From: a virus
Reading direction: 5' to 3' (one strand)
IMG/VR virus record: IMGVR_UViG_3300029845_000007
DNA: 64,000 nt
Positions 40 through 63,988 of this stretch are shown piece after piece (the first letter of the stretch is position 1; each line of letters begins with the position of its first letter). A program made the position numbers and the translations under genes. A model generated the notes under the pieces. That model was not told where the DNA came from. It made no database searches and saw only the letters and a list, made by a program, of their open reading frames with translations.

Positions 40-693
40 TTATTCTAATTTAGATAATTCGTTTGAAACTTTCTCATAACTATTATTATTAGAGATAGCG
101 TTAAAGGTATTAACAGCTCTCTTAATAACTTCTTTCATAGCAACATCTGATAGTTCGTTCGTAGTATCAGTTGCAATATTAATTAGAGTAGGATACTTAA
201 TATAATTAACTAAGAACTTATCTATCTCAAACGTTGCTATAACTTCAATATTTGATTCAGTCTTATAACATATAGGACTTATAACAATAGATTTTGAATG
301 ATAATCATTCATTGTTTCACTAACTAAGTCTAAGTCAATCAATCTGCAACGATAAGATTTATCCCCCTTAAAGGAGTAGACTGATGTATAGAACATCGGT
401 GTAGCATAGTTATTTAATTCTATCTTATAACCTGTACCAAACATTATATCTCCTTGTTCAGCTTCTAGTTTAATACTAGTATGAAGGCTACTAAGTTCTG
501 TTAATCTTATAACATTATCAGAGATACCATCGAGTTCACGATTACCCTTACGAGAGAAAACGTCTTTGACATATTCGATAGCCTCTAAATTAATTAGTCG
601 GTCTAACTCTTCAGGAAGTATAGCTCGGACACTTTTCATACCCATTTGTTGGGCTAAAAGCATGAACTCGTTATGTACCTCTTTTACTTTCAT
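40..693 (-). CDS. hypothetical protein, probably virion/structural (last gene of the capsid operon in this window)
   Basis: 217-aa intact ORF co-oriented with and immediately downstream of the MCP-like gene. No recognisable motif. Carries one copy of the dispersed motif (YSFKGDKS). Confidence 0.4.
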   Translation of the reverse strand: MKVKEVHNEFMLLAQQMGMKSVRAILPEELDRLINLEAIEYVKDVFSRKGNRELDGISDNVIRLTELSSLHTSIKLEAEQGDIMFGTGYKIELNNYATPMFYTSVYSFKGDKSYRCRLIDLDLVSETMNDYHSKSIVISPICYKTESNIEVIATFEIDKFLVNYIKYPTLINIATDTTNELSDVAMKEVIKRAVNTFNAISNNNSYEKVSNELSKLE

Positions 694-705
694 AATAACC
701 AGTTA

Positions 706-1860
706 TTATAATTTAAGTTTAGTTTCAAGTGCTTTTTTGTAGTCAGCATTTTCAGGATTACTGAAATAAGCTAATGCTTCTTTCATGTTGGCTCCAATGA
801 ATCCGCCTTCAGGAGTTAAAACAGTTTGGTTAACTTCCGAACGAACTAGTTCTCCTCTAGCGATAGCTTCTTCAATAAACGCTTGAAGTTCAACTTGTGA
901 ATTGTTAAACAGTTTGTTGAATTTCTCCGGCTCTTTAATTGCGAACTCATCAAGAATCTTTTCTTGAATTGTACGGTCAAGTAACAAGTTAGACAATACA
1001 TCTTGTTTGTTGCTTGCACAGTAGCATACAAAGATAGCTTTGAACTTAACATCATTATCAATAGCATCAAGATAATTACGTCTTGCTTTATTAGCCTGAA
1101 TACGACTACGTTTCAAACGATTAGCTTCACGTTGTTCATCTTTTATGTAGAACTTGATTCGAGAATCAAAACTAATAACAGATACGTCTTTAGCTACAAT
1201 CGGATATAATAAGCAATGACGATATGCAAGATAATCATCTACTTTAATAGGATGTCCATATTTATAACGAGTAGATTCAAGAGCATTAATCTTATTGACA
1301 TATCTAGCAATAGCATCTTTCAACTGTTTAGGATTAGACTTTTCGGCATTATCATATTCTTCTATGATAGCTGTTTCATCTATTTTATAATTCAGATAAT
1401 CTCTTTTCTTTCTCCATTGGAACGAACAGTTGAGTTTCTTTCCGTCACCGTCAACTGGAATAGATATACTATTAAACCAACGTTGAACTCTAGTAACATA
1501 CTCTTGTGCGTTAGGAGAACAGCCAATAAGAGAAGGCATATAAGCTGCCATTTCTTCATAGTTGCTAGTCAAGACTCTAGCTGAATTAATACTACCACCA
1601 ATACTATCATGACGTTCAGCAATGTATCTAGCATTAACTTGACGATAAACAGAATTAATAGTAATATCAGTAGCAAGAGCTATTACAATATATCTTTCTT
1701 CAAGAAAGTCTTTGTCTAAACCATCTTCTTCTTTAAGAATTTGTTCATAGGTTTGTTTAGGAGCTTCAGGAGTTTTAGTCTGCGGAATACTTGCAGACTG
1801 TGGATTTGGATTAGCTAGACTACTACCGAATGTACCGGTTTTTGGTGTTTGTCCTTCCAT
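706..1860 (-). CDS. hypothetical structural protein (capsid-associated?)
   Basis: 384-aa ORF, 25-nt gap after the MCP-like gene, same strand. Function not recognisable from sequence. Confidence 0.4.
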   Translation of the reverse strand: MEGQTPKTGTFGSSLANPNPQSASIPQTKTPEAPKQTYEQILKEEDGLDKDFLEERYIVIALATDITINSVYRQVNARYIAERHDSIGGSINSARVLTSNYEEMAAYMPSLIGCSPNAQEYVTRVQRWFNSISIPVDGDGKKLNCSFQWRKKRDYLNYKIDETAIIEEYDNAEKSNPKQLKDAIARYVNKINALESTRYKYGHPIKVDDYLAYRHCLLYPIVAKDVSVISFDSRIKFYIKDEQREANRLKRSRIQANKARRNYLDAIDNDVKFKAIFVCYCASNKQDVLSNLLLDRTIQEKILDEFAIKEPEKFNKLFNNSQVELQAFIEEAIARGELVRSEVNQTVLTPEGGFIGANMKEALAYFSNPENADYKKALETKLKL

Positions 1861-3377: not shown

Positions 3378-4712
3378 TTAGTTCAAGACTAGTTGGTCAT
3401 TATCAACTGTCTTAGAATTATTACCTTTACTATTGATAATAACAGTCCTTTTACCAGTAGTTTGCGCTGCGGCAGTTCTAATAGATAGAACTTTTTGTTT
3501 ATTAACAGCCATACCAACAAGACTAGCATAATCGCCACCAGTAAACCTTAGAAATGCTTTAAGTAAATCATCCTGCATACGAGCATCAGAATCAACTTTA
3601 GCTTCGTCTAACATATAAGCTGTATTACCTTCACTATCAACAGGAGTAGACACATACTTCAAGAAGTCTTTGCGACTAAGCATTACTTTCTTTCCGTCTT
3701 TGTTACATTGGATTTGTTCAGGAATACTATAACCTAATAGTTCGCCTTTGCTAATAGTCTTTTCTACATTATCCCAATATGCTTTTTCTTCAGCAGCAGC
3801 AGCAGCTTCTTTAGCTTCTACTTGTGCTTTCTGTTCAGCAAGTCGAGATTCATATATGCTATCAACAGCTTCTTTAGATTCAACAGCAGTATCATAAAGA
3901 ATACCAGCGTTCTTACAATAGTCAATAAATTTGTTTACGTCTCCTTTCTTACCGCTAAGTTTCCATTCTTCACGAATGAAAGTAGCTTGTTGTTCTTCGT
4001 TATCTTTACTAACAGTAATCTGACTTCTATCAGGTATTTCTACGAAGTCATCAAGAGTACCATTAAGTTTAAGATGATTAATAACTTGTTCTACTTGAGG
4101 ATAAGTTTCAAATAAGTTATTAATAGCAGCAGTTTGAGCTTCTTTAACTCTACTCTGAACTACTGTTTCAACATAAGCAGCAATGCCTTCTTCATTATCA
4201 TCAAATACGATAGGATTACCGTTTTCATCTTTAAAGTCAGAACCGAAACGAGTTTGTAATTGGTTAAGAACACTTGGTTCAGAACCATTTTGAGCGATAA
4301 GTTCAGCAAGTTCAGTAGCAGTACGGAATACAGTTCCGTCAGCAGCAATAGCATTACCTTCAGCATCAATAGTATAATCTACACCGTCTACATTAATAGT
4401 ATCACCTTCTGATAACTTAACTTCCCCCATAGAGGAGTCTTGTTGCTGATTATCCACTTGACCTTGCTGACCTTGATTTCCAGTATTACCATTACCGTTA
4501 TTAGCATTAGTATCAGGATTAGTATCAGGATTACCATTACCATTACCTTGTTGACCTTGTTGATCTTGTTGTCCAGCACCTTGTTGTCCCTGTCCGGTAG
4601 TATTACCGTTATTACCAGAGCCAGCACCTTGACCTGCACTACCAACAGTAGATATATCATCTATTTTAGTAGTACTTAAATCGAGAGAATCATTATTATT
4701 AAAAGTTGGCAT
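3378..4712 (-). CDS. scaffold-like / capsid-associated protein with disordered Q/G/N-rich N-terminus
   Basis: 444 aa. The N-terminal about 100 aa are low-complexity (QGQQGAG... repeats). The rest is helical with a coiled-coil segment (AEQKAQVEAKEAAAAAEEKA). Lies between portal and MCP, where scaffold proteins usually sit. Confidence 0.35.
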   Translation of the reverse strand: MPTFNNNDSLDLSTTKIDDISTVGSAGQGAGSGNNGNTTGQGQQGAGQQDQQGQQGNGNGNPDTNPDTNANNGNGNTGNQGQQGQVDNQQQDSSMGEVKLSEGDTINVDGVDYTIDAEGNAIAADGTVFRTATELAELIAQNGSEPSVLNQLQTRFGSDFKDENGNPIVFDDNEEGIAAYVETVVQSRVKEAQTAAINNLFETYPQVEQVINHLKLNGTLDDFVEIPDRSQITVSKDNEEQQATFIREEWKLSGKKGDVNKFIDYCKNAGILYDTAVESKEAVDSIYESRLAEQKAQVEAKEAAAAAEEKAYWDNVEKTISKGELLGYSIPEQIQCNKDGKKVMLSRKDFLKYVSTPVDSEGNTAYMLDEAKVDSDARMQDDLLKAFLRFTGGDYASLVGMAVNKQKVLSIRTAAAQTTGKRTVIINSKGNNSKTVDNDQLVLN

Positions 4713-5008
4713 AATAAATATGTTTTAATTATTACTTTCAAGTCAAATGTAGTCTAATAATATAAGAAATACAACTCTTGCTAGTTTGAATACCTTACTA
4801 TTAGGTTTAGAAAAGCCTGTATTTGAATTTAAGTAATATAAGAGTTAAATAGTATCAGCTAAAACGAACGTTCAACATAGGGCAAAAGAATAAGCCATTT
4901 TAAGGCTTGCTACGGCATTTTAATGCTTTATAATACAGTTCATCTCTTTAAGGGGGAAAATTCAATAGAAGTCAAAAAAATGCGGTCTACGTCAATCTTA
5001 CGGGTACG

Positions 5009-5035: not shown

Positions 5036-5083
5036 CACGTCTGAATCATAGAGAAAGGTATATAGCTAATTATAACTTAGTGT

Positions 5084-7516
5084 TCACTTCTTACTAGAAC
5101 TACTACTAGACTTTGGTTTATCATATTTGTTCTTATTCTCTTTAGCTATCTTTAGTTGATTATCTCTATCTAATGCAGCATTAATCATATCCAAGTCTTT
5201 AGCTCGTTTCTTCTCATTTAGTTCAGCTTGTTTTAAAGATAGTTCGGCAGAGTTATCTTGTGGTACAGTTTGTGCAGGTTGATTAGCTAGAGCAGCCATT
5301 GCAGCTTCTGTATCCATTCCTTTAGCAAGAAGGTCATAATAACCTTTGATTTCGGCAAGTCTAGCATCTTGTTCTCCTTTTGCAGCTATCTGTTCAAGAG
5401 CAGCTTTATTCTTAGCATCTTCTAACTGTTGGTCTAGTTGACGAAGAGATTCTTCGTTTTTCTGACGAATTTCTTGATAACGATTAATAGCTAGTTTAAG
5501 ACTAGATATATTCCCTGAAGTAATAGCTGCGACAGCTGACATTAAATCTCCATTCTGACTAGCATTGAAAGCCCACTCTTTGAGTTGCTCGAACTTCTCT
5601 GTTTCTCTATCAGAGTTCTTAGCTTTAATCACATACTGTCCGAGAGTATGATTCTCTACATTAAGAGAAATATATTGCTTTCTATCTGACTTATCATAAT
5701 AAGAAGTATCTAACCCGTCAATCCAAGCTAGCTTAGAATTATTTAAGTCTACGATATATTCATCTTCACGAAACTTATCAAACATATAATTGGTAATAAC
5801 AGTTCCCATTGAACTACGAATAATTGCTTCTTCCGTAGTACCTTTACCAGCACTAGTAGCTATTTGTCCATAACGTTGTGGTGTCATATCTACCATTTCA
5901 CGTGCACTGACTTTAATAGATTCAATAAGATTAGATATTTCAGTAATATAACCAGAGATATTAGCATCGAGCATTTTAATAGATTGCGCTTTAGTGCTAT
6001 TAATATCTTCTGCATCATCGTATGGAAATATACCTTCAGCAGCTATATTATATATAGCTTCTTCCGCATCTTCTCCAAATAAAGACTTAGCTGCAACAAG
6101 AATAAACATCTTATTTTTAGCTATCATCATTTCTCTATGATAAGAGAATATATTGATTAGTATTTGGAAAGGAGTAAGTATCTCTACAATGGAGAACTTT
6201 CCCATTTGAGGAAGAACTTCTTGAAGTCCACAATATTGCAATCTAGCATCATCGTCTATTTGGAAAGGAATAGGTTTAGCACCACCTGGGTATATACCGA
6301 AACGTTGTCCTCCAATACGATAACCTTCATATATCTGCGGTTTATATACAACAGATATTTCAATATGACCTAGTTCAGGATTAAATTCAAAGTCATCAGG
6401 AACAATCATTTCATCAACTAAACCTACTTCGTTAATATACTTTAGTATCTTAACTTGCGCATATCCTCTCCAATTAACATGCCATACTTCTAACAATTCT
6501 CCGTTCTTTAATCTTAAATCATAACCTTCTGACGGAAATATCTCACCAGTATCTTCTTTATAGTTCTTACACTTTTCAGGAAAATAATAAGTATAAGAAT
6601 TAAGACTAAGAGTACGAGTAGCTCCAACAGTACTAGGATTATAATACTTAGTTATAAATTCTAGTTGTTCCTCTGTTAATTCATCAGAGAATTGGTCTAT
6701 TACCTGATTGTAACTCATTAACATTCTACGAGCTACAATATCATATTTAGATACCATTTGTTCTCCATTAGGAACAGGATACATATCAGTAGTAGGAACA
6801 TATTCTTTAATTAGTTTCTTACCACGAACAGTATGGAAACTATAAACTTCCCCCGTAGTGATATAGTTGAAATACTCAACCGGAATTATTGTCTCATTAT
6901 TAAGAACATCATCAATAACTTCTAATAGTTGCTGTGCTTGTGAACTTATCTCATCTATATAATTATCAATAAAGTTCTTTTCAAACTCTTCTGCATCACC
7001 TGCAAGTTGTGCTGGGTCAACATCTTGTGTTGGTTGTCCTTGAGCTTCTAGTTGAGCGTTTTCAGCTTGTTGCTGTTGTACTCTCTTTTGAACTTCTTGT
7101 TGAAACGCTATCATAGCTCTCTTAACTATATCTTCTCGAATAGCTGCATCACGAGCCATAATAATTTCAGGATTATTAGCACCAACAATAAATTCATGCT
7201 GAGACTTAACATATTCTGATAAATAACGACGAACTACATCATTAATAATATCAAGATTTCTTAGAGTAGCAGGAAACCTCTTAAAGTTCTCCTTAGTAGC
7301 ATTATAAGGATTAAGTGTCTTACGATAAAACTCGTCAGGCATTTCTCCATGAAGTATTTCAAGAAGTTGTTCAGTCTTAGTTCTATCATTACAAGCTAGT
7401 CCGGCAGCAATACAATAATCTATTGTTCTGCCTGCCCAATACTCATCCTTTTCAGAATTAGGGATACGCTGTTTAGGCATATCCCCAAGTCTAACATTTA
7501 GCTTTGCATCAATCAT
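5084..7516 (-). CDS. putative portal protein
   Basis: 810-aa ORF immediately downstream of the putative TerL in the same operon, as in the crAss-like TerL-portal arrangement. Long helical C-terminal tail ending in a poly-Ser/Lys stretch. Inferred from synteny and size only. Confidence 0.5.
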   Translation of the reverse strand: MIDAKLNVRLGDMPKQRIPNSEKDEYWAGRTIDYCIAAGLACNDRTKTEQLLEILHGEMPDEFYRKTLNPYNATKENFKRFPATLRNLDIINDVVRRYLSEYVKSQHEFIVGANNPEIIMARDAAIREDIVKRAMIAFQQEVQKRVQQQQAENAQLEAQGQPTQDVDPAQLAGDAEEFEKNFIDNYIDEISSQAQQLLEVIDDVLNNETIIPVEYFNYITTGEVYSFHTVRGKKLIKEYVPTTDMYPVPNGEQMVSKYDIVARRMLMSYNQVIDQFSDELTEEQLEFITKYYNPSTVGATRTLSLNSYTYYFPEKCKNYKEDTGEIFPSEGYDLRLKNGELLEVWHVNWRGYAQVKILKYINEVGLVDEMIVPDDFEFNPELGHIEISVVYKPQIYEGYRIGGQRFGIYPGGAKPIPFQIDDDARLQYCGLQEVLPQMGKFSIVEILTPFQILINIFSYHREMMIAKNKMFILVAAKSLFGEDAEEAIYNIAAEGIFPYDDAEDINSTKAQSIKMLDANISGYITEISNLIESIKVSAREMVDMTPQRYGQIATSAGKGTTEEAIIRSSMGTVITNYMFDKFREDEYIVDLNNSKLAWIDGLDTSYYDKSDRKQYISLNVENHTLGQYVIKAKNSDRETEKFEQLKEWAFNASQNGDLMSAVAAITSGNISSLKLAINRYQEIRQKNEESLRQLDQQLEDAKNKAALEQIAAKGEQDARLAEIKGYYDLLAKGMDTEAAMAALANQPAQTVPQDNSAELSLKQAELNEKKRAKDLDMINAALDRDNQLKIAKENKNKYDKPKSSSSSSKK

Positions 7517-7781: not shown

Positions 7782-10079
7782 TTAATAACGTTTACGATTC
7801 CAAAAATTTTCTTTTTCTGTTTGAACTCTTTGTCTATGTTCAAGTTGCTTTTTAGCAAACTTATCATTAGCAGCCCATTCAATACCTCTAACAATCATTT
7901 CTGATACACGGTCAAAGTTACCAGTATTAGACCATTTCTTTAACTCTAGTACCGACTGATAATCATATATAGTATGAAGAACAAGCATGTCACGTCCGTC
8001 TTCAAACTTCCCTATGGGGGAATACAACATTTCCTTCAACATACGCAGACCGTCAAGTTTCACTGTCTCACTACTAATATCATAACCAATAGTATTAACC
8101 TTCTTACTATTAATATTAGTGTCCCAAAGATGAACAGGATGATAACCTAGATACTTAACAGCTTTCCACTTCTTAAAATTACTTACTGTTTCACCACGAT
8201 TGATTTCAACATTAGTTGTACCAAGACAATTATAAGTAACTGCAAAGTAATAACATATTCTGTCTGCCTTTTCTAGTTCATCAGGACGACCATAATACAC
8301 AGCACATAGTCTAGGACGATAACCATTATATATACAGGGATTCATCCATACTTTAATACTATTATGAGAATGTTTGTTAGTAAGCTCTTTTTTATCTTTA
8401 TCAATACCAACAGGGTCATAACTAATACTATATATTCCCGGAGGAGTACCTTTAGTCAACTGACCAGTTTTCTTATCTACATATTCAACTTTAATAGGAT
8501 TAAACCACTTACGAATACAACCTTCGGGGTCTTCATTAGAATGACGAGGAACATTCTTAATATAATCAAAGAAGTCTTTTCTATATACACCACCAGTTGC
8601 AGCAATACGTTCATTAGGAATAAACTCAAAGTTTTCAGAATCATATTCCACAAACTTACCGTCTATATAGAAGTTATACCTATTAGACATCTTTAGCTCT
8701 TGTTCCCATTCATCTAGTATCTCACTACTAAATATATTCTCACTTACAGAACTAAATGATTCACTAGGCATATTAGCATATTGTCCACAATAACTAATAA
8801 ACTTAGCAAATGATTTACTTTTAGCTTTTTCAATAGCACGTTCTTCTTCGGCTATCTGAAAACCTAAAACTATATCAGAATTACCGTCATCATCAAGAGA
8901 TGTAAGAGTAGCAATCTGATTATCATCACCAATCTTATAACCTTCAAGTCCCCAACAATAAGGTTTAAAATAACCACATACTTCCGGTCTACTATCTTTA
9001 TCCCATACATTTTCAAATGCCATAAAGTTTCTACCTCTAGGGTCATAGAAGTTCTGTTCAAATGTAACCCAACCAGCATTAGCTTTACCAGCAGTACCCC
9101 AAGCATTAAGAAAACCAGTAGTAACAGAACCTGTCTTTAGTGTAGGTTCAGTAACATCCATAAAATCATCAAAGTTTTCAAACTCTGACATTTCCTCACA
9201 CTTAATTTCTCCGGCATCTTTACCGACAGCGGCAGAAGGATTATTCTTAGTAGACACAGATATACAAGCACTATTCCAACTATTATCATCAATAATGGCT
9301 GTACTAGGGTCTTTATAACCTAAGATAAAATCACTAGCATCAATCTTAGCTATACCTCTTACAAATGGTGTATTAGATTCATAGAAGATAATCTGTTTCT
9401 TCATAAAGTCTGATAAACCACCTGACTGAACTAAGAACTTGTTATCACTAGCTGCATGAATAACAGCACGATTAGGAGTAAGATTAATAAAGTTTGCAGA
9501 ACCAATAGCTTCCATATAACTAAATCCACCACGACGAGTTTTATCATTTATAAGGAATAAACCATTATCTCGACAGAACTGTTTAATCAAGAAGTACCAC
9601 CATTGACAATCTATGAATCGTGGAAATCCTCTTATCTTACGTCCAGTAACTTTACCTTCTTCAACACGAAGTGTTTTAGTATCTAGTTTAAGAATACGTC
9701 CATAATTGATAAAGTTATAATGTTCACCAGTAATATAAACCTCTTCTATCTCACCAGTTCTAGTATCCATAAGACATGGAGCTTTAAAACCTACAAGTCT
9801 ACGAAGAGTTTCTTGTTTACGAAAGTTAGTATAAGGCATACTATCTACTGCAAACTTAGTATAAACCCCATCTTTCTCATAAGCAATAGCAGCAGGACGA
9901 AGAAGCTCTGTATTAACAAATCTCTTATTTTGGTCAATGTTCATTAAGAATCCTCCACTTTCTCCTATTAAGAAATGGTCAAATGGGTCTTTATATCCAA
10001 AGTCACTAGCATGTTTATACTTCTTTCCTTTATCTTCTTCCATGTAATACATGAAAAATGGATATTCAGACAATTGCAT
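7782..10079 (-). CDS. putative terminase large subunit
   Basis: 765-aa ORF directly upstream of the portal-like gene. Size and position match crAss-like TerL. No canonical Walker A could be found by eye, so the call rests on synteny. Confidence 0.5.
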   Translation of the reverse strand: MQLSEYPFFMYYMEEDKGKKYKHASDFGYKDPFDHFLIGESGGFLMNIDQNKRFVNTELLRPAAIAYEKDGVYTKFAVDSMPYTNFRKQETLRRLVGFKAPCLMDTRTGEIEEVYITGEHYNFINYGRILKLDTKTLRVEEGKVTGRKIRGFPRFIDCQWWYFLIKQFCRDNGLFLINDKTRRGGFSYMEAIGSANFINLTPNRAVIHAASDNKFLVQSGGLSDFMKKQIIFYESNTPFVRGIAKIDASDFILGYKDPSTAIIDDNSWNSACISVSTKNNPSAAVGKDAGEIKCEEMSEFENFDDFMDVTEPTLKTGSVTTGFLNAWGTAGKANAGWVTFEQNFYDPRGRNFMAFENVWDKDSRPEVCGYFKPYCWGLEGYKIGDDNQIATLTSLDDDGNSDIVLGFQIAEEERAIEKAKSKSFAKFISYCGQYANMPSESFSSVSENIFSSEILDEWEQELKMSNRYNFYIDGKFVEYDSENFEFIPNERIAATGGVYRKDFFDYIKNVPRHSNEDPEGCIRKWFNPIKVEYVDKKTGQLTKGTPPGIYSISYDPVGIDKDKKELTNKHSHNSIKVWMNPCIYNGYRPRLCAVYYGRPDELEKADRICYYFAVTYNCLGTTNVEINRGETVSNFKKWKAVKYLGYHPVHLWDTNINSKKVNTIGYDISSETVKLDGLRMLKEMLYSPIGKFEDGRDMLVLHTIYDYQSVLELKKWSNTGNFDRVSEMIVRGIEWAANDKFAKKQLEHRQRVQTEKENFWNRKRY

Positions 10080-10090: not shown

Positions 10091-10585
10091 TTATTTTAAT
10101 AATACGACAACAAGAATAGCTAGCACACTTGTACTAGCTATAAATCCATTACGTTGTTTTTTATATCTCTTAGACTTTTTATACTCCTTATTAAGATTAG
10201 TAATAGCTTCATTACCTATTAACGTTATCCTTCTTATTTCTTCACATTGCTTAGATATAACAGAATCCTGCAAGTAGCTATCTTGAACTTTTAATTCATA
10301 TAACTTCTTGTAGGATTCGTATTGGTTTTTGTACTCTTCTGAAAGTATTAACTTAGCATTGGCTATTCTTAATACTTCTTTATCTAAGCTCCGCTTCGCT
10401 CCGCTATCCCCCATAAAGGGGTGTGATTGCTGTAAACTATCTACCTTCGTCTCTAGTCTCTTGATTCTTAATTCTGACTGGTTTTGACACAAGATATATG
10501 AAGCGTTCGAGGATAGCAATACTATCAGTATCACTAATCGCTTTATTAAATTCTTTCTCATACTGATTAGTATTATTAAGAGCAT
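10091..10585 (-). CDS. membrane-anchored coiled-coil protein (spanin-like; true start may be internal at 10561 or 10423)
   Basis: 164 aa. N-terminal signal-like hydrophobic stretch (MRKNLIKRLVILIVLLSS...C), central coiled coil, C-terminal TM (FIASTSVLAILVVVLLK). Overlaps the upstream ORF by 149 nt in another frame. Confidence 0.3.
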   Translation of the reverse strand: MLLIILISMRKNLIKRLVILIVLLSSNASYILCQNQSELRIKRLETKVDSLQQSHPFMGDSGAKRSLDKEVLRIANAKLILSEEYKNQYESYKKLYELKVQDSYLQDSVISKQCEEIRRITLIGNEAITNLNKEYKKSKRYKKQRNGFIASTSVLAILVVVLLK

Positions 10586-12396: not shown

Positions 12397-13112
12397 TTTG
12401 TACTCTCGTATTTCCCCCGTAAAGGAGCGTTGACAATTGTATCACTTACTAATCCTAGCTCTCTCTTTTGAGCCTCTACTTGAGCTTCCAAATCACTAGC
12501 ATCTTTTGCAGACATAGACATAGTAACAACCTTACCACCTCTAGCTTTCTTTTGCTCTATTTCAAGAGCAGCAGCTTGTTTAGCTTCACCTAAAGCTTTA
12601 ATTTGATTAGGAATGATATTAATAATACCATTTAGTTTTGTCACTAAATCAATAACTGGTAAAGCATCTTCGGCTTGTAAACCAGAGTTTAACTTATTAG
12701 TAAGTTGCTCACTAATAATATTTGCTGCACGAGAACTATTATGAACAGCTCTAAGAATACTTTCAAGAGCTTCTCCTGCAACACCCATTTTATCTTCATG
12801 ATATCTATCAATAAGACGAAGAATAAGAGCATCAGGATTCCAATCAGCAGGAAGACCATAATTAGTCTTTGCAGAAGCTAATGCTTCAGAACGACTATAT
12901 CCCATTTGATTAGGTGGAGATTTAGGGTCGGCTACATAAAAGATAACTCCGGCTTCTTTAATATACCGAAGTTTATCCTCACTATTATCACGAAGATATA
13001 ATTCTCTTACATCTTTATCCTGTATCTGATAAACGTTAGGAGCATAGGGATAACCTTGCTCATTAACACTAATCATACCACTTAAATCCAATGGGGAAAT
13101 CTTCGCAATCAT
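12393..13112 (-). CDS. hypothetical protein
   Basis: 239-aa ORF in an operon with its neighbours (4-nt overlap). Contains a motif copy at the 3' end. Confidence 0.4.
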   Translation of the reverse strand: MIAKISPLDLSGMISVNEQGYPYAPNVYQIQDKDVRELYLRDNSEDKLRYIKEAGVIFYVADPKSPPNQMGYSRSEALASAKTNYGLPADWNPDALILRLIDRYHEDKMGVAGEALESILRAVHNSSRAANIISEQLTNKLNSGLQAEDALPVIDLVTKLNGIINIIPNQIKALGEAKQAAALEIEQKKARGGKVVTMSMSAKDASDLEAQVEAQKRELGLVSDTIVNAPLRGKYESTK

Positions 13113-14997: not shown

Positions 14998-15007
14998 TAT
15001 TGCTATA

Positions 15008-16180: not shown

Positions 16181-16189
16181 CCAGTTACG

Positions 16190-17900: not shown

Positions 17901-17964
17901 CCCATAAAGGAGCGTGATTGCTGTTACATCTTCACCTTTTATTTACCATTTAACTTATATCATT

Positions 17965-42688: not shown

Positions 42689-42746
42689 ATGTTGTACTTG
42701 GATAAAATCAACGTATTAATGATAGTTGTATTGCTGGACTTGCCTA

Positions 42747-52300: not shown

Positions 52301-55300
52301 GAGTATTACCAATATTATCTATTAGTTTCTTAACAATTTGCAGTCCTGCCTTATTTTCACCATCCATGTGTTGAGGAATATCTTGCTGGGTATAAAGATT
52401 AGAATACCAACCAGTTTTATACTTAGTTTGAATATCCAAGTTAAACTGTTTCAACCTTTCTTTAGAGGGGAATTTCCCATGAGAATCCCAAAATTCTAGT
52501 ACTCTATTAGTAGTAGCTTTTTCAGTAGTAGTAAAGTTAACCTGACCTATATTATTATCAGTCATATATTTAGCTAAAGCAGCAAGTTCACTATTGCCTA
52601 AGAATCTAGGTATAAGTACGAACTCTGCATTTTTAATCTGAATAGGATTAGCTAACTTAGCATCATTATCTATTTCTAAGTCATAATAGAAGTTCTTTTG
52701 AACTTGTATCTTCTTAGATAATTCTCCTAACTTAACATTGTCAATAGGCTTACTTTCGTCATAAAGAGCTTCAATTAAATCTTTATAACTATCATACTCT
52801 CCACGTAGATACATTCTACGAACAAATTCATCAAGAGTAATAAACGATTGAGCATCTGTTACTTCTGACTTATCTTTAGAGAACTGTTTAAGTATAAAAG
52901 CTCTAGTCTCTTTAGATACATTAGCTATATCTAATTGCTTCTTTAAATCATCGAGAACTTTACCGCTACTTTGAACATCTTCAAGAGTAATATATTTGAA
53001 ACTACTATCTATACTAATAGTCTTATTAGGAGCTACTGTTATATCTCCCAAATGCTTTTGTACATTATATAAATCATATCCTGCATAAGCTAATCCTCCG
53101 GCTTGATATTCTTTGTTACGTTTAATAGTATCACGAGAATCTTTATAATATGCTTCATCTCCGAAGAACATATCATTTAGATTATTATATTGAATCTCAT
53201 AGTTAAGTACCATTTCTGCAATGAAAGCGTTAAATGATTCTTGACTAGCATTCTTATATTTATCTACAAACTCTTTATTAGAACTGTATTTAGCGACAGC
53301 TTCTTGTATTCTATAATTGATATAATTATCTATATAATTATAAACTGAATTACGAAGCTCACCAGTAAGTCTAATATTATATTCTCCGTTCTCATCTTGT
53401 ATTAGCGATATTTCACTATTCTTTCCCCCGTAAAGGAGTGAGAATACGTCACCTCCCTCGAATAGCCAATTCATATCCACTGTTTTAGCTGTCTCACTAT
53501 TATAGTTATTAAGATTCTTAACTTTATCAATAAGTAGACTTCTAAATTTAAATACATTACCAGTTGGTTTACCATTGCTATCAAGAATACTTTTACGATA
53601 ATGATAGTTAAGTCTAGCTTCTGATTTACGTAAATCTTTAAACTCTTCTTTTATCTTAGGTTTACCGTTCTCATCTGATACAATAGTTACTACTCCATTC
53701 TCAACAGTTGTCTCAAATAAGAAGTTAATAGCTTGCGCCATTTCTGCGAGTTCTTTAGCATAAATATTAGCATAAGCTACATATATAGGATGTCCACGAT
53801 TAATAGAGCTGTTAGCATTAAATAGTCCAGTATAATCTAACTTATAACTATTAAATACGAAAGTCTTAGGTGCATCAGAAGGAGTTTGAGTAAAGAACTT
53901 AGATTTCTTAACTCCTTTAGTCATCTCATAATTGTCACCATTATTAGCGTATTCATTAAGCGTAATAATATCCCACTCAAGAGCATTAATATCTTTATAA
54001 GATTTAGCCTTTCCTGTTACTTCATTACTAACTCCGTTATATAATTGTGCACCAAATTCACGATAATATTCAGTTAGTTTATAACCAGTATCTGTAAGAC
54101 GAAGTAAACCTGGGACTATTTTTCCATTAGACAAAGTTTTCTCAATAAGAATATTACTATATCTGTATTGAGGAATATTAGTAAATTTAACTAAGTAATC
54201 ACGTAGTTCGGTATTACTAACAGGATTATCATTATAACGATTATCGTTAATTCTTTCAAAGAACTTACTTATATAGTTGTTTTTTAGAATATCACTAACT
54301 AGATTGTTCTCTGCATTAATACTATTAAATTCAGAATCTACTATCTGATAATCTTTAAATCTATTAGATATACGATTGGCTATATTATTAGCATAACCAC
54401 CTTTGTATTGTAGTTGAGATTTATCAAAAGGAACTACCACATATTCTTCATTCTCTTTAGTTTTAGCATATTCACCTGCATAATAGATACGTTGTGCTTC
54501 ATTATCTATCTTTAATAGATTAGTCGCCTTACCTACTACTTTATTAAACTCTAACAAATCATCGACAATAGAAGAGATATTAGAAAGTTGGTTATCACCG
54601 AAGTTACGAACGTAGTTAACAACACCCTGTCTATTGATGCCGAAGTTATACTTATTAAAAATTGCAGCAATTTGCTCCGTAATTTCTTGGATTTCATTTG
54701 TGTTAGAATTTTTTAGTGTAGATAATCTGTTTTTAAGTTCGTCTAATACGGCAATATCATTAGCCATAATAGAAGGATTGTGAATAAGTGAATCGAAACT
54801 ATTAAGTATTTTGTTTTGTAGATTAAGTTTAGGAAAAGTATTACGATTCTTAGTAACCACATTAGAACCGTCTTGACTATAAACTACTTCATTACGTTCC
54901 CAAATAGATTGTTTTAGTTGAGTAAATATCTTATTTCTCATCTGAACATTGGCTTCGTCTTCTAGTAAACGTGCAGCATATTCTAAATGAGATACTTCTT
55001 TAAATCTTGCAGCAATAGTATGGAAACTCTCTATCATAGCTTCAACACTAGAGAAATTACCATAGTTATTAATAGCTTTAAAAGAACTAGAAAAAGTAGT
55101 ACTTTCAGCCATGCCTGAATAAGTATTATTAGAAGTATCAGGCTGTTCATTTATAAAACTATTACTATTTGTTTTAGGTAAACGAGCAAACCATTCTTTT
55201 ACTTCTTTGCTAACATTTTTATCTATATCTTTTCGTTGGTCAGATATTTCAGACCAATCAGCACGAAGAGCAGCAATAGTTTCTTGGTCATCTTGACGAG

Positions 55301-56241: not shown

Positions 56242-59200
56242 TTAACTACATACGAAACTAAGCTCACCAGTGTCAAACAAATGCGTCACAATAGCCTTTT
56301 GTCGATTATTCAATCCCTCAATCAGACTATCGAAATTATCGACTTGACGGTAGTTATCACTTATACTACTATCTAAATCTAAGTCTATATCAGGAATATC
56401 AAATACATCATCAGTAGGAACGCTAACATCTTCCTCTGCTCTATCAAAAGTATCGTCATGAGTAACAGTAGAAGTACTAGCTGTATCACTAGTTTCTAAT
56501 CCAATAGTAGATAAACGATTACGAACTTCTCCAAGTAATGTATTATCTATTTGTCCTATCTTACCTATTAATTCTACTAAAGCATCTACTATTTTAGTAA
56601 ATAGGTTGTTTGATTCAATAGTAGGATTAGAATCATACTTAATTCTAGCTAGTAATCTAGCAAATGTGCGATTAGTAATAGCTTCGACTACAAACTCTTC
56701 AATAGCAACAGCTCTAGGTTTACTACTATTTAAGAAATCTCCATACTCATCTATTAGACGAGAATCTTGATTAATAAAGTTAGCAAACTTATCGTATAAG
56801 TCTCCGAATGATTGTTCTATATTAGCACGTTCATCATTAAGTAGATAATGTACACCTTCATGTATAAGAGTAAGAACTCTACGTTCAGGAGCAAGACTAT
56901 TAAAACGATTACTAAGAGTAATAGTATTACCACCAGCGACTATTCCTGCAAATCTACCTTTTTCACCTACTGTTTCAATATCAGGACTAAGTTTAATACC
57001 AGCAGATTCTAATGCAGATACAACAGATAATAGATTAGGATTATCAGTATTAGCTTGTGCAACTTCCATAAGAGTACCTATTTGAGGAACACTGTCTTGA
57101 CTAGCAAGTGGGTCAGGTACAACTACGGGAGACACAGTTTGTTGCCCCTTTATGGGGGAAGTAGCGGCGTTAGCCGCGTCAGTACGACTAGCATTGCGAC
57201 TAGGATTCATAAGGGTAATAGTCCTATTATAAACATCACCAACATAATTAAAGTTACTAACAATATTACCTTTACTATCAGTAACACTTCCTAAATCAGT
57301 AACCAATACTCCGTCCTTAGCTACAAATTCTTCATAACTACTATAACCAGTATCAAACCATTCATCTTGAAGTATATTAGGTATCTTAGCTTGTAACTTA
57401 CCGCCTACTACTCTAAATAAACTAGATTCACCACGAATAGCCGAATTAACAACATTACGAGTAAGTAAAGCATATACTTCTTGTAACATTTTACTAAAGT
57501 TACCATGATTATTAGTAGGAACAAAACCATTAGGCATACGAGCCATAAGTCTTCTAGGTTTAAGTTCACCAGGAATAGAGAAAGCTACATTTCTATCTTT
57601 AAGATTAAAATAAATAGTTGGTGCAACTCTATTAATAGGTATTAAAGCATGACCTCTTACTTCATAACCATACAATACTTTCTGTTTACCTATATATTTA
57701 GATACTTCTTCTAATAGTTGAGTATGAAGATTTTCATTGCCTTGTAAAGTAGCATCTAATAAAGAATGAAGTAGTTTATCTAATCCTTCATTAAACCTCT
57801 TAGTATATTCAGTAGCACCAGTTTCACTATTACTCATAGTATTCTCACGACTAGGAACTGCAATAAGTCTTCCTTCTGAATCTTTAATAGTCATACCTAC
57901 TACATTTCTAGGAATACGACTAGCCGCAATAATAGTATTGGTTTTAATATCAGCTACTCCACCGTCAACTCCTACTACTAAACGATAACCGTCAGTTGCT
58001 TCACTAGTAGTAACATCTCCAAACTTACGATATATAGGATTACCTTGTTTATCTTTAGCATAAATAACACTACCTGAACTTGTACGTCCAACAACTAGAC
58101 GTTTCTTTTTAGACTTAGTTTTACTAATAGAGGACTTTAAGTTATTAATGTCCGTATAAGACTTCTTGAGTTTATTCATCCAATTAGTTAACGAATCGTT
58201 AACAATGGTACTAAAATCAGACTGATTAACATTAAGAGCATTATTAAAGAATATAATACTATTAAGATGTCTAATCCTATCTAATAGATTAGTTTGAGTA
58301 TCACCGAATAAACTAGTTAGATTCTTCCAGTTCTTATTCTCTTGTAAAGCATTAAGCTGATGTCCGAATGTTCCTTCAACTTCAGGGTTATTACGAACAC
58401 GATACAAACGACGTATATTATTAAGTGTTTGTACAAACTCTTTAGCACTTTCATCTTCATTACTAATAATAGATTGGAGTTGCGTTATAAAATCTATATT
58501 ACCATTTCTAACAGTGTATCTCCAACCTTGATTTATAACTTCAACGTTCCCATTATTATAATTAATTTTAGGAAACTCACCTATCTTAATTCCACGAGAT
58601 TTAACGATAAGATTATCGTTTTCATCTAGTTCTACATTTACTGTATCATTAGTCTTTAACTGACCGATACGAGAGTAAACCTTACTATCATTTAGATTAA
58701 CTAGATTAAAGAAGTAACCATTATCTTTAGTATTCTGTCTATTCTCTGCAATAGCATTTTCTAATGTCTTACTTGCAGACTGTATAATATCAGAAGGCGT
58801 CTTAACTTCTGTATCAACATTAACTATCTTACCGTTTATTATTTGACGATTAGCTAAAACTTTAATATCATTATACAGATTAATAGCTCTAGGATTAAGT
58901 TGTTGTAAATATATCATCATATCATTAAGACTAGTAAAAGTTTTACCTTCTACTTCATTGCCTTGTATCTGATTATACAAGTCTATGATAAGATTGATTT
59001 CTTCTATACGTTGACGCTGACCTTCTAAATCATTATCAGATATAGCTGATTCAAGAACTGTATCATCAGTTCTAGTATCTTCTTTCTTAGAAGTATCTAC
59101 AACAGTAATATCTCCAATAGCAATAGCTGCATTAAGTTCTTCAATAGTGACATCAGCAATTATATTGCCTTTAGCATCTAATCCGTCAATACTTACATTT

Positions 59201-62200
59201 CCGAATCTACTAATACGAATATCAATATCGTTAACTTTAACTGGTTTACGAGATACGTCACTAAGACTTGCAAAAGGATTTACTATCGTAAATTCAAGAT
59301 TACCTATATTAGACTTATTTACAATACCTGAATTAGATTGAGATACTACTTTGTCTAACGTTTCCTTTAATTTCTTCTCTTTTGCAGTCTTTGGTTTAGG
59401 TCTAGGCTTAGGCTTAACTTCTAGTTCTTCTTGAGTCGTCGCTTCGCTCCTCCCTTCCCCCATAGAGAAGGTTTCTTGCTGATTCTCCGGCTGTCTTTGC
59501 TGTACTTCATTCTGTATAGCTAACTTATTTCTTCTCTTAGTAATAGCTTCTCTTAGATTACTTATTTCATTCTTACCATTCTCTGAATTAGTTAAAATAC
59601 TAACAGCATTAGATAAACTCTTATTGCTAGTATTCTGACTTTCTTCATCAGTAAACGCATTATCTAGTGCTTTCTCAAGATTACCAAGCTCTTCTTCATT
59701 AGCCATATTAACAAAGTCATTAAGATTCTTCTTTGCTGATTTAACTAGATTCTTAGCTGCATCTTCTAATTCTTTCTTACGAGTATCTTCAAATTCCTTA
59801 GCTTGTTCATTAGTAGTAATAATACGAGAACGATAATTATCTCTACGAATTTCATCAAGAAGTATCTGTCCCATATTATCCATATACTCTGAATTAATAT
59901 TATGAACTTGTTTAGCAAGAGTACCAAGACTAAAGTCTTTACCTGCCTGTTTAAACAGAGCTACATCACTTTCATCAAGTTCTTCTATTTGTTTCTTGAT
60001 TAAGTTGTTCTGTTCTTCGCTACCTTCTATTCCTAATGCAATATTCTCTACACTACGAACATTATCTAGAAACAGACTTTCCATAGAACTTAAACCTCTT
60101 CGTAAGTCTGTAACCTTAGATTCAATTATTCGCGATAAATCAATATACTGACTAGCTTGCGCTCTATCTAAAGGATTGTTACTATTCTTTAGACTATTAT
60201 AAGTAGACATTACTTCTCTACGATACTGTTCTAATATACCTAATTGCATACGATTCTTAGCCATTGGATTAAGAACTTCATTAATAGCCGGTATGCTATT
60301 CTCTAATTGAGATTGAATAGTATTAAGTCTTTCTACTCGTTTATTTAATAAGTCCGCTTCTTGTGCATTAACTATATTCTCTGATATAGCAACATCTAGT
60401 AAAGCATCATCAATATTAGCACTACGTAACGCAGTAGAATAATTGACATATCTATCGAGAACAGTACGCATAGTTTTCTTTAATTCTTGCGTATCTCTAT
60501 CGTATTCAACATCATCTACAAGACCTGAATCAACTAGTTTCTTCTTTAGTCTAGGGTCTTCAATATAATCTTCAAGTAGTTCATAATTACCTGAACGAAT
60601 AGCATTTAAAGTAAGAGTAGTAGTAAACTTCTCTTTAGCCGCTGCCCGCAAATCTTCTTGTTCTTCAGGGCTAACCTTAGTATAACGAGTAGTACCAACT
60701 GTTGGGTCTTGACTAACAGTACCGTCATCTAAATAAGTAATAGGATTACCATTAGCATCACGTTCTATTTGATATGGATTCTCACCATTATCAATAATCT
60801 GCATCTGACGAGCATACTCATTGAATACCTGTTCACGACCATTTATTTCAGCAATACGTTGTTTCTCTTCTACATTACCACCTTTACGATTATTAATAGC
60901 TGACATAGTACCACCAAAAGTAATACCACCAATAACTCCCCAAAGTGCAGCATTGTATAATTGAGGATTCTGCAAGTACTTCTCTATTCTATCCATAGAT
61001 ACAGCACCATTGTATTGTTCAGCTTGACCTAACAAATAACGACCGTATAAAGTACCTTCTTCTTGACCTACAAAGTTAATAGCTTCTTCAATACCTTCTG
61101 TTAATTCAGATAATAGTAGATTCTCACTAGAATTAACAAAGCGATTTATTTTACCTGCAAAATCTTTAATAGTACCTTTTGCCGCTTGACCTAAAGTTTG
61201 ACTAGCAGATTCAACACCAGTAGAAGCTATTCTATCGAGAGCTTGATTCTGTGAATAACGAATACGTGGAGTAATAGCACGATTGACTTGTCCTATTGCT
61301 TTATTAACAGCACGTAACTGCATGAAATCAAAGAATACGTTACCTGCGTTATAACCAAAGTTACGCATAGCTGCCTTATCTGCAACTATAAGAGCAGCTT
61401 CTTCTTTAGTTCTTTCTTTAGCCTCACTTGCAATATCAGGATTGTTATCTAACCAATTCTGAAACTCTTCGTCAGACATTCCAGTAAATAGAGACAATGC
61501 TTCACCTTCTATTTGTTCTGCAACACCACGAGCTTCTTGATAATTCTCACCTAAACGCATACCAATAGCTGTAATACCGTCATTAGCTAATATCTTTAAT
61601 CTATTAGCACGATATACATTATCTAATTTAGTAGCCTTCTTTGCCCAATTCATTGCACGACTTACTTTAGAACTACTACGTCCTAATGCTGCAACTCCTT
61701 TACCAACAGCTCCAACTCCTTTAGTTAAAAGAGTGCCAGGAATCATTAAAGATAGAGAACTAGCAATACTAGGAACTTGACTAAAGAACCAACCTGAAAA
61801 GTCATTCATATCAAATGCTTTATCAGGGTTCTCACGATATATAGGAAATAAATCGTCACGAACATAATCAGATATAGTATCACCAGCTCTTGTAATAGGA
61901 TTACTAAAAGGTTTATCATCCCATAATCCGGCAGTAGCTAAATCTATTAGCATACCCATACCTCCAACAGTATCACCAATAACAGTACCAATAGTTTGTC
62001 CTAAAGCATTACTTGCCTGTTTCCAAGCTGATTGATTCTTAGCACGTAGAGTTTCTAATTCTTCTCTACTTTGATACCTATTAGGTTCAGCACCATACTT
62101 AGCTAATGAATGATAATCTTCCTCTGTACCAGTAAACACTTCTTTACCTGTAAGATTACGAAACATAAAGTTGCCTTGTGCAGCAACATCAGGTTTATAT

Positions 62201-62298: not shown

Positions 62299-62302
62299 AC
62301 GC

Positions 62303-63988
62303 TTACTTCATTAAGTCGTTCATTTGATTAAGTATAACTTGACTAGGAGTTTCTCCCGTAAGACTAGAGTACATTCGATTAAAGAATTGAAATACTTGTC
62401 TCTTAGTATCTATATCTAATTCATTTAGATTACCAGTAGCACCTGCCATTATCATAGCCTTCTGCATAAGCGGACGAGCAATCACTTGTTGCTCTTCTAT
62501 GGGGGAATTTGCAATAGAACCATTTCTAGCACTAATCAAATCTATATCTTCTTTAACAGGAGCAAGAACAGCATTAGCTTGATTGTTTTGAAGCATACGT
62601 TCAAATAACTCACTTTCAGTAATTTTAATTACAGGAGAATCACTAGCATCGAGTATTTGATACAGGTTGCCATCAGTAACAGCTGAATAACTACCGTCTC
62701 CAAATTCACTATCTGATAAACGATAACCTCTTTTAAGAGCGTTATTGTACTTAATAGAATTGAGAGTGTCCCATGCTTTAACAGCAGGCAAAGATTTAAA
62801 TCTCTCTATCTCATCATTAAGTACAGCACCTGTAATCATATAGTCTCCGGCTACTGCGTTCTGTATTCTATCTTCCATATCAGAATCAGGATTCTTACCA
62901 ACATTCTTACCTGTCTTTACAGTATAAGGAATATTTAAGAATATACCATATTCACCAGTAGAAGCAGAACTACACCAACCGTTATTAATATTCTTCTTCT
63001 TAATTTGTGCTTGAATAGTTTGCATGATAGCATCTCTATCTCTACTATCTTCAACAACTTCAAGAACTCCTTCTTCATTACGTTTCTTAATAACTATACT
63101 TCCTGGATTAGCAATACTAACCATATTCATAACCCGTTCATTATAGTCTTTTAGTTGTTCAGATTCAAAGCCCTGACCTAAAGCAACAACATGAGGCGGT
63201 AAGTCAAATACCGCTAAGTCTACATAAGTAGGAGGAAGAGTTTTAGATACTCTTTCAGTCGCAGCATTAGATATTTGTGCAGCTTTCTCATATACATAGG
63301 CTATTGAGTTTTTATCACTTCCGGCAGTTGTTATCTCTCCACGACCAAGTGCTCTAAAGCCAGCCATAAATGCAGTGACTTCACTACCATAATATTTATT
63401 ACCATGATAGACTTCATCAGCCCTAGTAAATGATTTAGGTTCTACACCTTCATTAGTAAATCCAATAGGATTAACTTTTAATACTTCACTTATTTCAGGA
63501 GCTAAACGAGTATAAGCATCTTTACTAATACGAATATATTCTTTATCCCCTATTTTAGAGAATGATACATCTTGTCTAGTAAGACCCATATCAACTCTTA
63601 GTTTAGATATAATAGCAGCTTTACTAGCTTCGTTAATAGGATTAACAAGAACTGTATCGAAACTATTACCTTGCGAATCTGTGAATAACTTGTTCATTCT
63701 ATTAGCATATTCACGTTGCATAGGATTATTAGTATCTGCCATATTTCCATTACTAAGTCTCTTACCTAAGAAATCAGATGCAAACTGTTCATCTTGTGTA
63801 AGATGTCCTTTCATAGCATCTAATCTATTATTAGCGTTATTAATACCACTATAATAATTATATGCTTCATCCAATGCTTGCTTCTTAGCTGTATCAGACA
63901 GATTGCTATTATTAGCAATACTTGACCTTAATTGAGCATACGCTTTATCTAATGGAACAGATTTAGATATTCCATAAGTAGCAAACAT
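62303..63988 (-). CDS. hypothetical virion protein (561 aa in window; the frame stays open to the window edge, so the true start may lie beyond 64000)
   Basis: ORF co-oriented and translationally coupled with the 2018-aa gene. Confidence 0.45.
   Translation of the reverse strand: MFATYGISKSVPLDKAYAQLRSSIANNSNLSDTAKKQALDEAYNYYSGINNANNRLDAMKGHLTQDEQFASDFLGKRLSNGNMADTNNPMQREYANRMNKLFTDSQGNSFDTVLVNPINEASKAAIISKLRVDMGLTRQDVSFSKIGDKEYIRISKDAYTRLAPEISEVLKVNPIGFTNEGVEPKSFTRADEVYHGNKYYGSEVTAFMAGFRALGRGEITTAGSDKNSIAYVYEKAAQISNAATERVSKTLPPTYVDLAVFDLPPHVVALGQGFESEQLKDYNERVMNMVSIANPGSIVIKKRNEEGVLEVVEDSRDRDAIMQTIQAQIKKKNINNGWCSSASTGEYGIFLNIPYTVKTGKNVGKNPDSDMEDRIQNAVAGDYMITGAVLNDEIERFKSLPAVKAWDTLNSIKYNNALKRGYRLSDSEFGDGSYSAVTDGNLYQILDASDSPVIKITESELFERMLQNNQANAVLAPVKEDIDLISARNGSIANSPIEEQQVIARPLMQKAMIMAGATGNLNELDIDTKRQVFQFFNRMYSSLTGETPSQVILNQMNDLMK

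Follow-up and report, generated by a model that had tools for sequence, protein, structure and literature searches.

An Evenly Spaced, Oriented DNA Word in crAss-Like Phages and Its Possible Reading in Replication or Recombination

Introduction

Why should a phage genome repeat one short sequence on both of its strands, within genes and between them, at distances more regular than chance would produce? This question is raised by a 64,000-nucleotide stretch of viral DNA, the IMG/VR virus record IMGVR_UViG_3300029845_000007, which we refer to as the window and which was analysed over its whole length. The window carries an asymmetric 16-base word, (T)TCCCCC[A/G/T]TA[A/G]AGGAG, in 24 copies (13 +, 11 -). 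A sequence-only reading of the same DNA had noticed that copies lying in the sense direction inside open reading frames (ORFs) nearly always fall in the frame encoding S-P-I-(K/E/G)-(E/K), and had offered in-frame 15-nt insertion units, or selection on the encoded peptide, as possible reasons. Here we address the word as a DNA element, in the window and in related phages, and weigh what may read it.

The window has a composition of 32% G+C, and is laid out as a leftward structural block, a rightward replication block, and a second leftward block with two giant ORFs (4239 and 2018 aa). Judged by its TerL gene, which at the DNA level is 98.6% identical to that of the uncultured phage cr107_1 and 91.6% identical to that of Bacteroides phage crAss002, the window is assigned to Jahgtovirus (Crassvirales, Intestiviridae), near these two phages, and gene names were taken from their annotations. 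The Intestiviridae set comprised cr107_1, crAss002, Rudgehvirus jaberico, p-crAssphage, cr3_1, cr271_1 and cr8_1, representing three subfamilies, and orthologues from the first five were aligned with MAFFT. Further comparators were crAss001 (Steigviridae, host Bacteroides intestinalis), the marine crAss-like phage phi14:2, and the Bacteroides siphophages B40-8 and B124-14.

An Over-Represented Word with Lineage Variants

The excess of the word is large. In the window, its 9-mer TCCCCCATA was observed 14 times against 0.10 expected, and the 15-mer TCCCCCATAAAGGAG, at <=3 mismatches, 21 times against 0.75 expected. Runs of C5 (or G5) are for the most part pieces of the word (24 of 27). Copies are located mainly within ORFs (19 of 24, with 8 sense and 11 antisense), the other 5 being intergenic, which makes ~80% of them intragenic.

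Variants of the word with the common core CCCCGTA(A/G)A are present in all seven Intestiviridae genomes examined, and de novo k-mer counting found a relative of the word to be the most over-represented k-mer in every one of them, with a Poisson P of 1e-22 to 1e-46. The Jahgtovirus genomes cr107_1 and crAss002 have TTCCCCC[AGT]TA[AG]AGGAG in 31-34 copies, Rudgehvirus jaberico has CTCCCCTGTA[AG]AGGAG in ~26, and cr3_1 has TYCCCCGTA[AG]AGGAA in 28. The variant of p-crAssphage is GACYCCCCGT[AG]GAGGATGGA (32 copies), that of cr271_1 is GCTCCCCCGTAGAAGA (~18 copies), and that of cr8_1 is GCC[GC]CCCCGTAAAAGGTATG (~27 copies). In p-crAssphage (BK010471) the variant extends to ~25 nt, GGgtaGACTCCCCGTAGAGGATGGA, and contains GTAGA twice, 11 nt or one helical turn apart; the doubling suggests a candidate tandem two-part binding site. 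In cr8_1, positions 46, 112 and 92659 hold an inverted motif pair at the start of the linear record and a duplicate of one copy at its end, to be explained either by overlap in the assembly or by a terminal repeat.

Outside the family, the Intestiviridae word was looked for in crAss001 and is absent. This phage possesses its own unrelated word, CTCCAGAAG, with 27 copies against 0.36 expected (17 + and 10 -), whose same-strand copies are likewise evenly spaced and whose sense copies mostly read (T/A)PE. No such word was found in phi14:2; its top k-mers are clustered and follow the coding strand, and it therefore represents a useful negative control. Neither word, nor anything comparable, is present in the siphophages B40-8 and B124-14. 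A scan of IMG/VR returned matches mostly on contigs of crAss size, 50-120 kb in length with many at ~90-97 kb, and a single contig often had several; a scan of bacterial genomes gave, among the matches listed, only scattered single ones in unrelated taxa, which is weak evidence.

A host Chi-like or otherwise host-imposed word was rejected on these grounds, as the word of crAss001 is unrelated, the two siphophages have none, and the bacterial matches listed are scattered. The word is a property of phage lineages, not of the host. Its distribution among phages and bacteria points to a reader that is probably phage-encoded and not a host factor. Phyletic profiling by BLASTP for a reader common to Intestiviridae and crAss001 and absent from phi14:2 met inter-family similarity too low to inform. 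We found no account of the word or of its spacing in searchable full text, including the literal sequences of three variants, where absence is not proof; the word is apparently undescribed.

Even Spacing on Each Strand

The copies on one strand keep their distance from each other. They occur about once per 5.5-7 kb, with a smallest gap of 1.2 kb overall and of at least 2 kb on 14 of 16 strands. The largest same-strand gaps measure 8-20 kb, except for one of 38 kb on the sparse + strand of cr271_1. For 15 of 16 strands the coefficient of variation (CV) of the distances between same-strand neighbours falls within 0.29-0.55, with 0.70 on the cr271_1 + strand and random placement giving ~0.9; the window has values of 0.44 (+) and 0.53 (-). 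Even spacing is found in seven independent lineages, crAss001 included, with a Fisher combined P≈5e-24.

This regularity belongs to each strand separately. With both strands pooled the copies are only mildly regular (CV 0.64-0.77), neighbours on opposite strands can be just 27-36 bp apart, the placement of one series is independent of the other, and no fixed phase between the + and - series was seen in the distance lists. Strand counts are near-equal in five of seven Intestiviridae genomes (6/12 in cr271_1). Because same-strand copies are far more even than random, orientation tends to switch from one copy to the next: the window does so at 19 of its 23 steps (P=0.0013), crAss002 at 26 of 30 and cr8_1 at 22 of 26. 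Sense and antisense copies are ~1:1, and orientation is unrelated to gene direction. The even spacing per orientation points, if indirectly, to a reader that depends on orientation.

Two other candidate explanations of the word were rejected. A structured RNA motif is not supported, since the window has no Rfam match at the gathering threshold (and no tRNA either) and single copies show no local structure, with mean fold z scores of -0.3 and -0.5 on the two strands. The AGGAG half was considered as a Shine-Dalgarno element, and the downstream flanks, read by eye, present no start codon at a consistent distance.

Maintenance of the Word as DNA

Within genes, the word is spelled against the preferences of the genome. 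TCC makes up 2.6% of serine codons and CCC 3.9% of proline codons, both among the rarest, and the probability of the spelling TCC CCC ATA AAG GAG given the peptide SPIKE is 2.7e-5 by genome codon usage. Every one of the seven SP(I/V)xx peptides found in the main ORFs nevertheless uses the spelling of the word. The cost of rare codons and forced peptides is borne by TerL, RNA polymerase (RNAP), helicase and primase genes, which argues for strong selection.

Positions of the word are also retained. All 24 window copies have positional counterparts in cr107_1, and nearly all have them in crAss002. Compared with crAss002, the window shows 93% identity over the 16-nt word, where nearly all mismatches sit at the two degenerate positions, and 86% over the 100-nt flanks. 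Some copies stand out further from their surroundings: the perfect copy at 34116..34130 (+) is unchanged in the relatives while its flanks are just 74-76% identical, and of the perfect copy at 17898..17912 (+), which lies between genes in the non-coding stretch at 16.9-18.4 kb, crAss002 retains 14 of 15 bases between flanks of 75% identity.

Across genera, some sites are retained in proteins that are only 30-50% identical. One is the primase site (window copy TCCCCCTTAAAGGAT, 32969..32983, -, antisense in the ORF 32152-33285(+) and read YPLRGN), which is kept at the same alignment position in five lineages. Jahgtovirus and Rudgehvirus read it as YPLRG or YPLQG, p-crAssphage and cr3_1 as ILYGG or FLYGG. 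The local reading frame differs here while the DNA stays. The helicase site (perfect copy at 28053..28067, +, HSPIKE in the 488-aa protein) has its DNA word kept in 5/5 lineages compared, with SP(I/V)(K/E)E conserved in all five. The antisense RNAP copy TCCCCCGTAAAGGAG at 53424..53438 (+), read LLYGGK, is likewise kept in 5/5 lineages, and the site of TCCCCCATAAAGGGG at 57145..57159 (-) is present in Rudgehvirus and cr3_1 as well. By our own count, ~6-7 of the 33 cr107_1 sites are positionally common to other genera, so that sites turn over while number and spacing persist. Taken together, comparison among these genomes makes it very probable that the word is maintained as DNA and not as protein.

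Reading Frame of the Copies within Genes

The frame bias that first drew attention to the word was reproduced in full by ORF mapping, coordinates and peptides included. Seven of the eight sense copies read TCC CCC ATA. They are TCCCCCATAGGGAAG at 8007..8021 (-) in TerL (7782-10079 -), read YSPIGK; the helicase copy already described; the 34116 copy in a 170-aa ORF, read SSPIKE; TCCCCCATAGAGGAG at 38496..38510 (+) in the Gam-like 257-aa ORF, read TSPIEE; a perfect copy at 48354..48368 (-) in the 4239-aa RNAP ORF, read TSPIKEQ; the 57145 copy in the 2018-aa ORF, read TSPIKGQ; and TCCCCCATAGAAGAG at 62492..62506 (-) in the 561-aa ORF 62303-63988(-), read NSPIEEQ. This last ORF is the in-window portion of a ~930-aa gene cut by the window end. 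The sole exception is TCCCCCGTAAAGGAA at 21974..21988 (+), sense in a small ORF ending at 22032, which uses the minority frame FPRKG. Rudgehvirus has a sense copy read IFPRKGE, a candidate counterpart going by its reading. It also held, as the sequence-only reading had it, that the +1 frame is closed by TAA or TAG and that antisense copies use mixed frames, all three being occupied.

Seven of eight in the window alone is weak (binomial P=0.035 one-sided, 0.07 two-sided). Over more genomes the bias is firm: sense copies in the xSP(I/V)(K/E)(E/G) frame against the PRKG frame number 33:9 in four lineages (P=1.4e-4), or 27:10 when positionally orthologous sites are counted once by hand (P=0.004). 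A second bias, missed earlier, is present in the antisense direction, where the SS(M/T)GE frame is used by 28 of 46 copies against one third expected (P=1.2e-4). It had been allowed that the pattern would shrink to a codon-usage coincidence if the residues were ancient and the frames equally used in larger samples; some of the sites are indeed ancient, but frame usage remains unequal, and the codon probability given above marks the bias as genuine.

What the favoured frames encode are small, polar residues of the kind that fit into loops. The frame bias is real but secondary: it arises because a strongly selected DNA word must be fitted into genes, as with bacterial DNA uptake sequences, and protein constraint decides only which frame tolerates it.

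Proposed Function and Alternative Explanations

The observations as a whole are best explained by an oriented word acting at the DNA level and read in a Chi-like manner in replication or recombination, a reading to which we give a probability of roughly 0.5. Orientation matters and the direction of transcription does not, so a reader that tracks along DNA or sees one strand is the most likely kind. Replication, recombination or repair is favoured because transcription, packaging and ejection run in one direction. Such a reader would travel along the DNA in either direction, or see a single strand; it would be a phage-encoded helicase-nuclease or a replisome-associated factor at work in replication or recombination, for which the word would be a control or self-marking signal akin to Chi. 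Selection would see to it that no point on either strand is more than a few kb from a copy in the right orientation, and redundant nearby copies would decay. Inside genes, the word would persist in the frames giving the loop-friendly SP(I/V)(K/E)(E/G) in the sense direction and SS(T/M)GE in the antisense direction. The specific Chi-like function is the more tentative part of this proposal, possible at best.

Several points weigh against it. Known Chi sites are 5-8 nt in length and read by the host RecBCD or AddAB, and we know of no precedent for a phage-specific Chi equivalent of 14-19 nt. There is no compositional footprint, as the mean GC skew is ~0 and neither GC nor AT skew changes across oriented sites. 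Identity break-points among the three Jahgtovirus genomes are not enriched at the sites (P=0.13-0.72, with low power), so that a recombination hotspot gains no support, and neither of these two indirect tests favours any particular model. The minimum spacing could also reflect selection against nearby direct repeats, which carry a risk of deletion. Lastly, the crAss-like genomes analysed in full were only eight (n=8). A replication-initiation footprint, as a candidate of its own, was rejected on the unchanged GC and AT skew across the sites.

An extension of the Chi-like reading is a heritable, lineage-specific "self code", whereby a tracking enzyme of the phage, its counterpart of the Chi/RecBCD pair, would read the oriented 9-19-nt word in its evenly spaced series on each strand. 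The replication, recombination and nuclease machinery of the phage would so tell its own DNA from that of the host or of a competing phage, with variants diverging as lineages do. This is a doubtful proposal.

A close rival of the Chi-like model is strand-specific priming or initiation. Here a phage primase, or the virion RNAP acting as a primase, would read the word on single-stranded template, and lagging- or displaced-strand synthesis would start every ~6 kb, whichever the fork direction. Even spacing per strand, strand symmetry and independence of transcription fit this explanation as well as they fit the Chi-like model, and at 16-19 nt a lineage-specific word is about as long as a phage RNAP promoter. 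Also in its favour, the virion RNAP of crAss-like phages uses single-stranded or denatured DNA as template and has no known promoter motif; in phi14:2 no common motif was found upstream of early transcripts (bioRxiv 10.1101/2020.03.07.982082). Against it, the sites read by known primases are 3 nt long, ~6 kb is long for Okazaki fragments, no skew change is seen at the sites, and phi14:2, the only crAss-like phage with a characterised polymerase, is without such a word. We consider priming unlikely.

Transcription roadblocks or terminator halves form a further alternative, in which a bound protein, as at stoperators, or RNA pairing of inverted copies would restrain transcription on both strands, for instance while the phage persists in a carrier state. 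The inverted pair at 42767/42801 does make a very stable hairpin between convergent gene blocks, similar close pairs exist in the other genomes, and the word occurs in gut phages that persist with their hosts but not in phi14:2, which is lytic and marine. However, sense copies are found inside essential long genes (RNAP, TerL, helicase), orientation is ~1:1 with respect to genes, unlike that of stoperators, and ~80% of copies are intragenic, with single copies lacking local structure. The probability of this explanation is small.

Smaller still is that of phage nickase sites, by which virion DNA would have localised single-strand interruptions at the word, here on both strands. In T5, the phiKMV-like phages and tf, a consensus of 7-20 nt repeated 4-14 times marks nicks, all of them on one strand (PMC3517423), whereas the present word is divided about equally between the strands. 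Genes for a DNA ligase are present in the Intestiviridae genomes examined, and several also have HNH endonucleases, which speaks for such sites. Nick sites have not been reported to be evenly spaced, and since opposite-strand copies lie 27-36 bp apart, nicking both would nearly break the duplex.

The two explanations first put forward for the frame bias, mobile in-frame 15-nt units or selection of the pentapeptide SPI(K/E)(E/G) itself, are highly improbable. What speaks for them is the single frame of seven in eight sense copies and the few copies that in other lineages lie inside lineage-specific insertions. The sense copies of the window align without gaps to orthologues that have no word: YSPIGKF stands against KTVVGKR, YEEIGKD and YEVIGKN in TerL, SSPIEE against SKARDE in the Gam-like protein, PSPIKE against TKKVKE in the 170-aa ORF, and NSPIEE against QAPQDE in the 561-aa ORF. 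Where the three Jahgtovirus genomes differ at the 24 window positions, they do so by base substitution or by a short indel next to the word, and in no case by a block of 15 nt. The weak copy TCCCCCTTAAAGAGA at 4943..4957 (-), intergenic (4712-5084), present in cr107_1 and absent from crAss002, is a case in point, as its absence there comes down to base substitutions and one gap column in a 215-nt alignment. Miniature insertion elements and in-frame units were accordingly rejected, there being no indel of unit size against orthologues. Some copies in other lineages do lie within variable linkers or lineage-specific insertions of 12-19 residues; they show tolerated places, not movement as a unit. 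A selected peptide does not account for copies that are intergenic or antisense, for the differing primase frames, or for the use of the rarest codons.

Finally, chance or a compositional artefact, whose sole support is the small sample behind the original seven-of-eight claim (P=0.035), is ruled out to a negligible remainder by the 9-mer excess, the top k-mer rank in every Intestiviridae genome and the positional conservation.

Other Copies in the Window and Their By-Products

The remaining copies of the window are mostly antisense within genes. Among them, TCCCCCTTAAAGGAG at 362..376 (+) lies in the 217-aa ORF 40-693(-), is read FKGD and is kept in cr107_1 and crAss002. TCCCCCATAGAGGAG at 4423..4437 (+) lies in the 444-aa ORF 3378-4712(-), is read SSMGE and has an orthologous antisense copy in Rudgehvirus. 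A weak copy with a degenerate 3' half, TCCCCCGTAGTGATA at 6849..6863 (+), lies in the portal ORF 5084-7516(-) and scores 15.6 bits by position weight matrix (PWM), while TCCCCCGTAAAGGAG at 12413..12427 (+) is placed at the 3' end of the 239-aa ORF 12393-13112(-), read PLRGK. Further on, TCCCCCTTAAAGGAG at 21259..21273 (-) lies in the 106-aa ORF 20997-21317(+) and is read PLRGN, CCCCCCGTAGAGGAG at 27020..27034 (-) lies in the DNA polymerase ORF 24942-27299(+) and is read SSTGG, and a weak copy, TCCCCCGTAAGGAAA at 39649..39663 (-), lies in the 362-aa ORF 38891-39979(+) and is read FLTGE. In the 2018-aa ORF, TCCCCCATAGAGAAG at 59456..59470 (+) is read FSMGE.

The antisense form contains ATG, and two such codons had been singled out as possible starts. 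The one at 36042 (+) was correctly located; the other is at 10414-10412(-), and not at 10423. The copy concerned, TCCCCCATAAAGGGG at 10407..10421 (+), provides in its complement the likely start of a 107-aa gene (10091-10414), and this ATG is orthologous to the annotated start codon of cr107_1 gp12, which itself lies in the orthologous motif copy. The ATG of the antisense form may thus occasionally serve as a start codon, as far as annotation and orthology indicate. At 36035..36049 (-) there is a perfect intergenic copy whose complement opens, at 36042, a 30-codon ORF (36042-36134, +), MGEINENTRYFVSVRFTMPTLTTILFLSYV, which ends in TAATG and overlaps the start of the ORF 36134-36508. In the annotation of cr107_1 the corresponding orthologous stretch is intergenic.

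Two copies, at 42767..42781 (+) and 42801..42815 (-), form the left and right arms of an inverted pair between convergent gene blocks. Together with their GC-rich flanks they make a long hairpin at 42740..42845 (-50.4 kcal/mol, z = -7.65), and among all copies only this pair folds in the fold tests. Situated at the junction of a + and a - gene block, the hairpin is predicted to be, probably, a bidirectional terminator. Close inverted pairs like it occur in other genomes, and closely spaced intergenic inverted pairs are predicted to double as hairpin terminators. Tracts of GC-rich GCTCGC/GCTCCGC repeats stand directly 5' of six motif copies, at 10380-10406, 17873-17897, 21274-21300, 42742-42766, 42816-42842 and 59432-59455, and the tracts at 42.8 kb lengthen the hairpin.

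Two features of the window stand apart from the word. The region 14300-18400, between divergent blocks, is non-coding and rich in repeats, and is located at the minimum of the cumulative GC skew. It contains a 28-nt repeat unit in three copies (14976, 15367, 15403), adjoining two C5 runs that are not part of the motif, a 13-nt tandem repeat, GCCGTCCGGCAAAGCC, in three copies (16268-16309), a 20-nt unit, TTACACAGATTTGCGTGTAA, in two (16946, 16989), and a degenerate tandem array at 17187-17326. These repeats are candidates for an origin or control region. Additionally, the hexamer CTCCAG/CTGGAG is absent from the window against 13.4 ± 3.4 expected, and occurs 3-4 times per 93 kb in cr107_1 and crAss002 and 20-68 times in other crAss-like genomes. 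The loss looks like a Jahgtovirus-specific avoidance of a restriction site.

Significance

Among the viruses of the human gut the crAss-like phages rank first in abundance. A family-wide, strand-specific, evenly spaced signal would imply a sequence-reading machine central to their DNA metabolism, and the word offers a direct route to its reader, either through its use as bait or through synonymous recoding. The lineage variants are possible lineage markers for metagenomes. Recoding or synthesis of crAss-like genomes would destroy the signal unknowingly.

Comparison with Known Systems

Promoters of T7-like RNAPs resemble the word in length, asymmetry, conservation within a genome and lineage specificity. 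They are intergenic and co-oriented with genes, unlike the phage word, which is found inside ORFs, in both orientations and within single transcription units. Stoperators, found in Cluster A mycobacteriophages, are asymmetric sites of 13-14 bp with ~20-35 copies per genome and a lineage-specific consensus, and are read by a phage protein. They are mostly intergenic and oriented with transcription, in contrast to a word that is ~80% intragenic and independent of transcription in its orientation.

Chi is an oriented, over-represented, self-marking word present once per few kb, and its value depends on the direction from which the tracking enzyme approaches. The per-orientation spacing of the phage word comes closer to this logic. 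It differs in being 14-19 nt long and specific to phage lineages, whereas Chi is 5-8 nt, read by the host, abundant in the host chromosome and co-oriented with replication. Moreover, the phage word is strand-symmetric genome-wide, differs between phages of the same host genus, and shows no enrichment among the bacterial matches listed. Nick consensus sequences of T5, the phiKMV-like phages and tf are also phage-specific and repeated inside and between genes (PMC3517423), but they mark 4-14 sites on one strand, and the phage word has ~30 sites, split between the strands and evenly spaced.

Closest in behaviour are the uptake signal sequences (USS) of Pasteurellaceae and the DNA uptake sequences (DUS) of Neisseriaceae, which have an even distribution, equal orientations, an origin by point mutation, inverted pairs as terminators, a frame bias and lineage variants (PMC2817400). 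Like them, the phage word is non-palindromic, over-represented, present in both orientations and more even than random; point-mutation origin, intergenic inverted-pair terminators, a strong frame bias and lineage variants ("dialects") were all found for it as well. Its density is lower, at ~1 per 3 kb against ~1 per kb, and its even spacing for each orientation separately is not a defining feature of USS/DUS. The phage word is not a member of this class, because its carrier is a phage, with no competent bacterium and no uptake machinery involved. If its reader is indeed phage-encoded and orientation-dependent, the logic of Chi and of uptake sequences would extend from bacteria to viruses.

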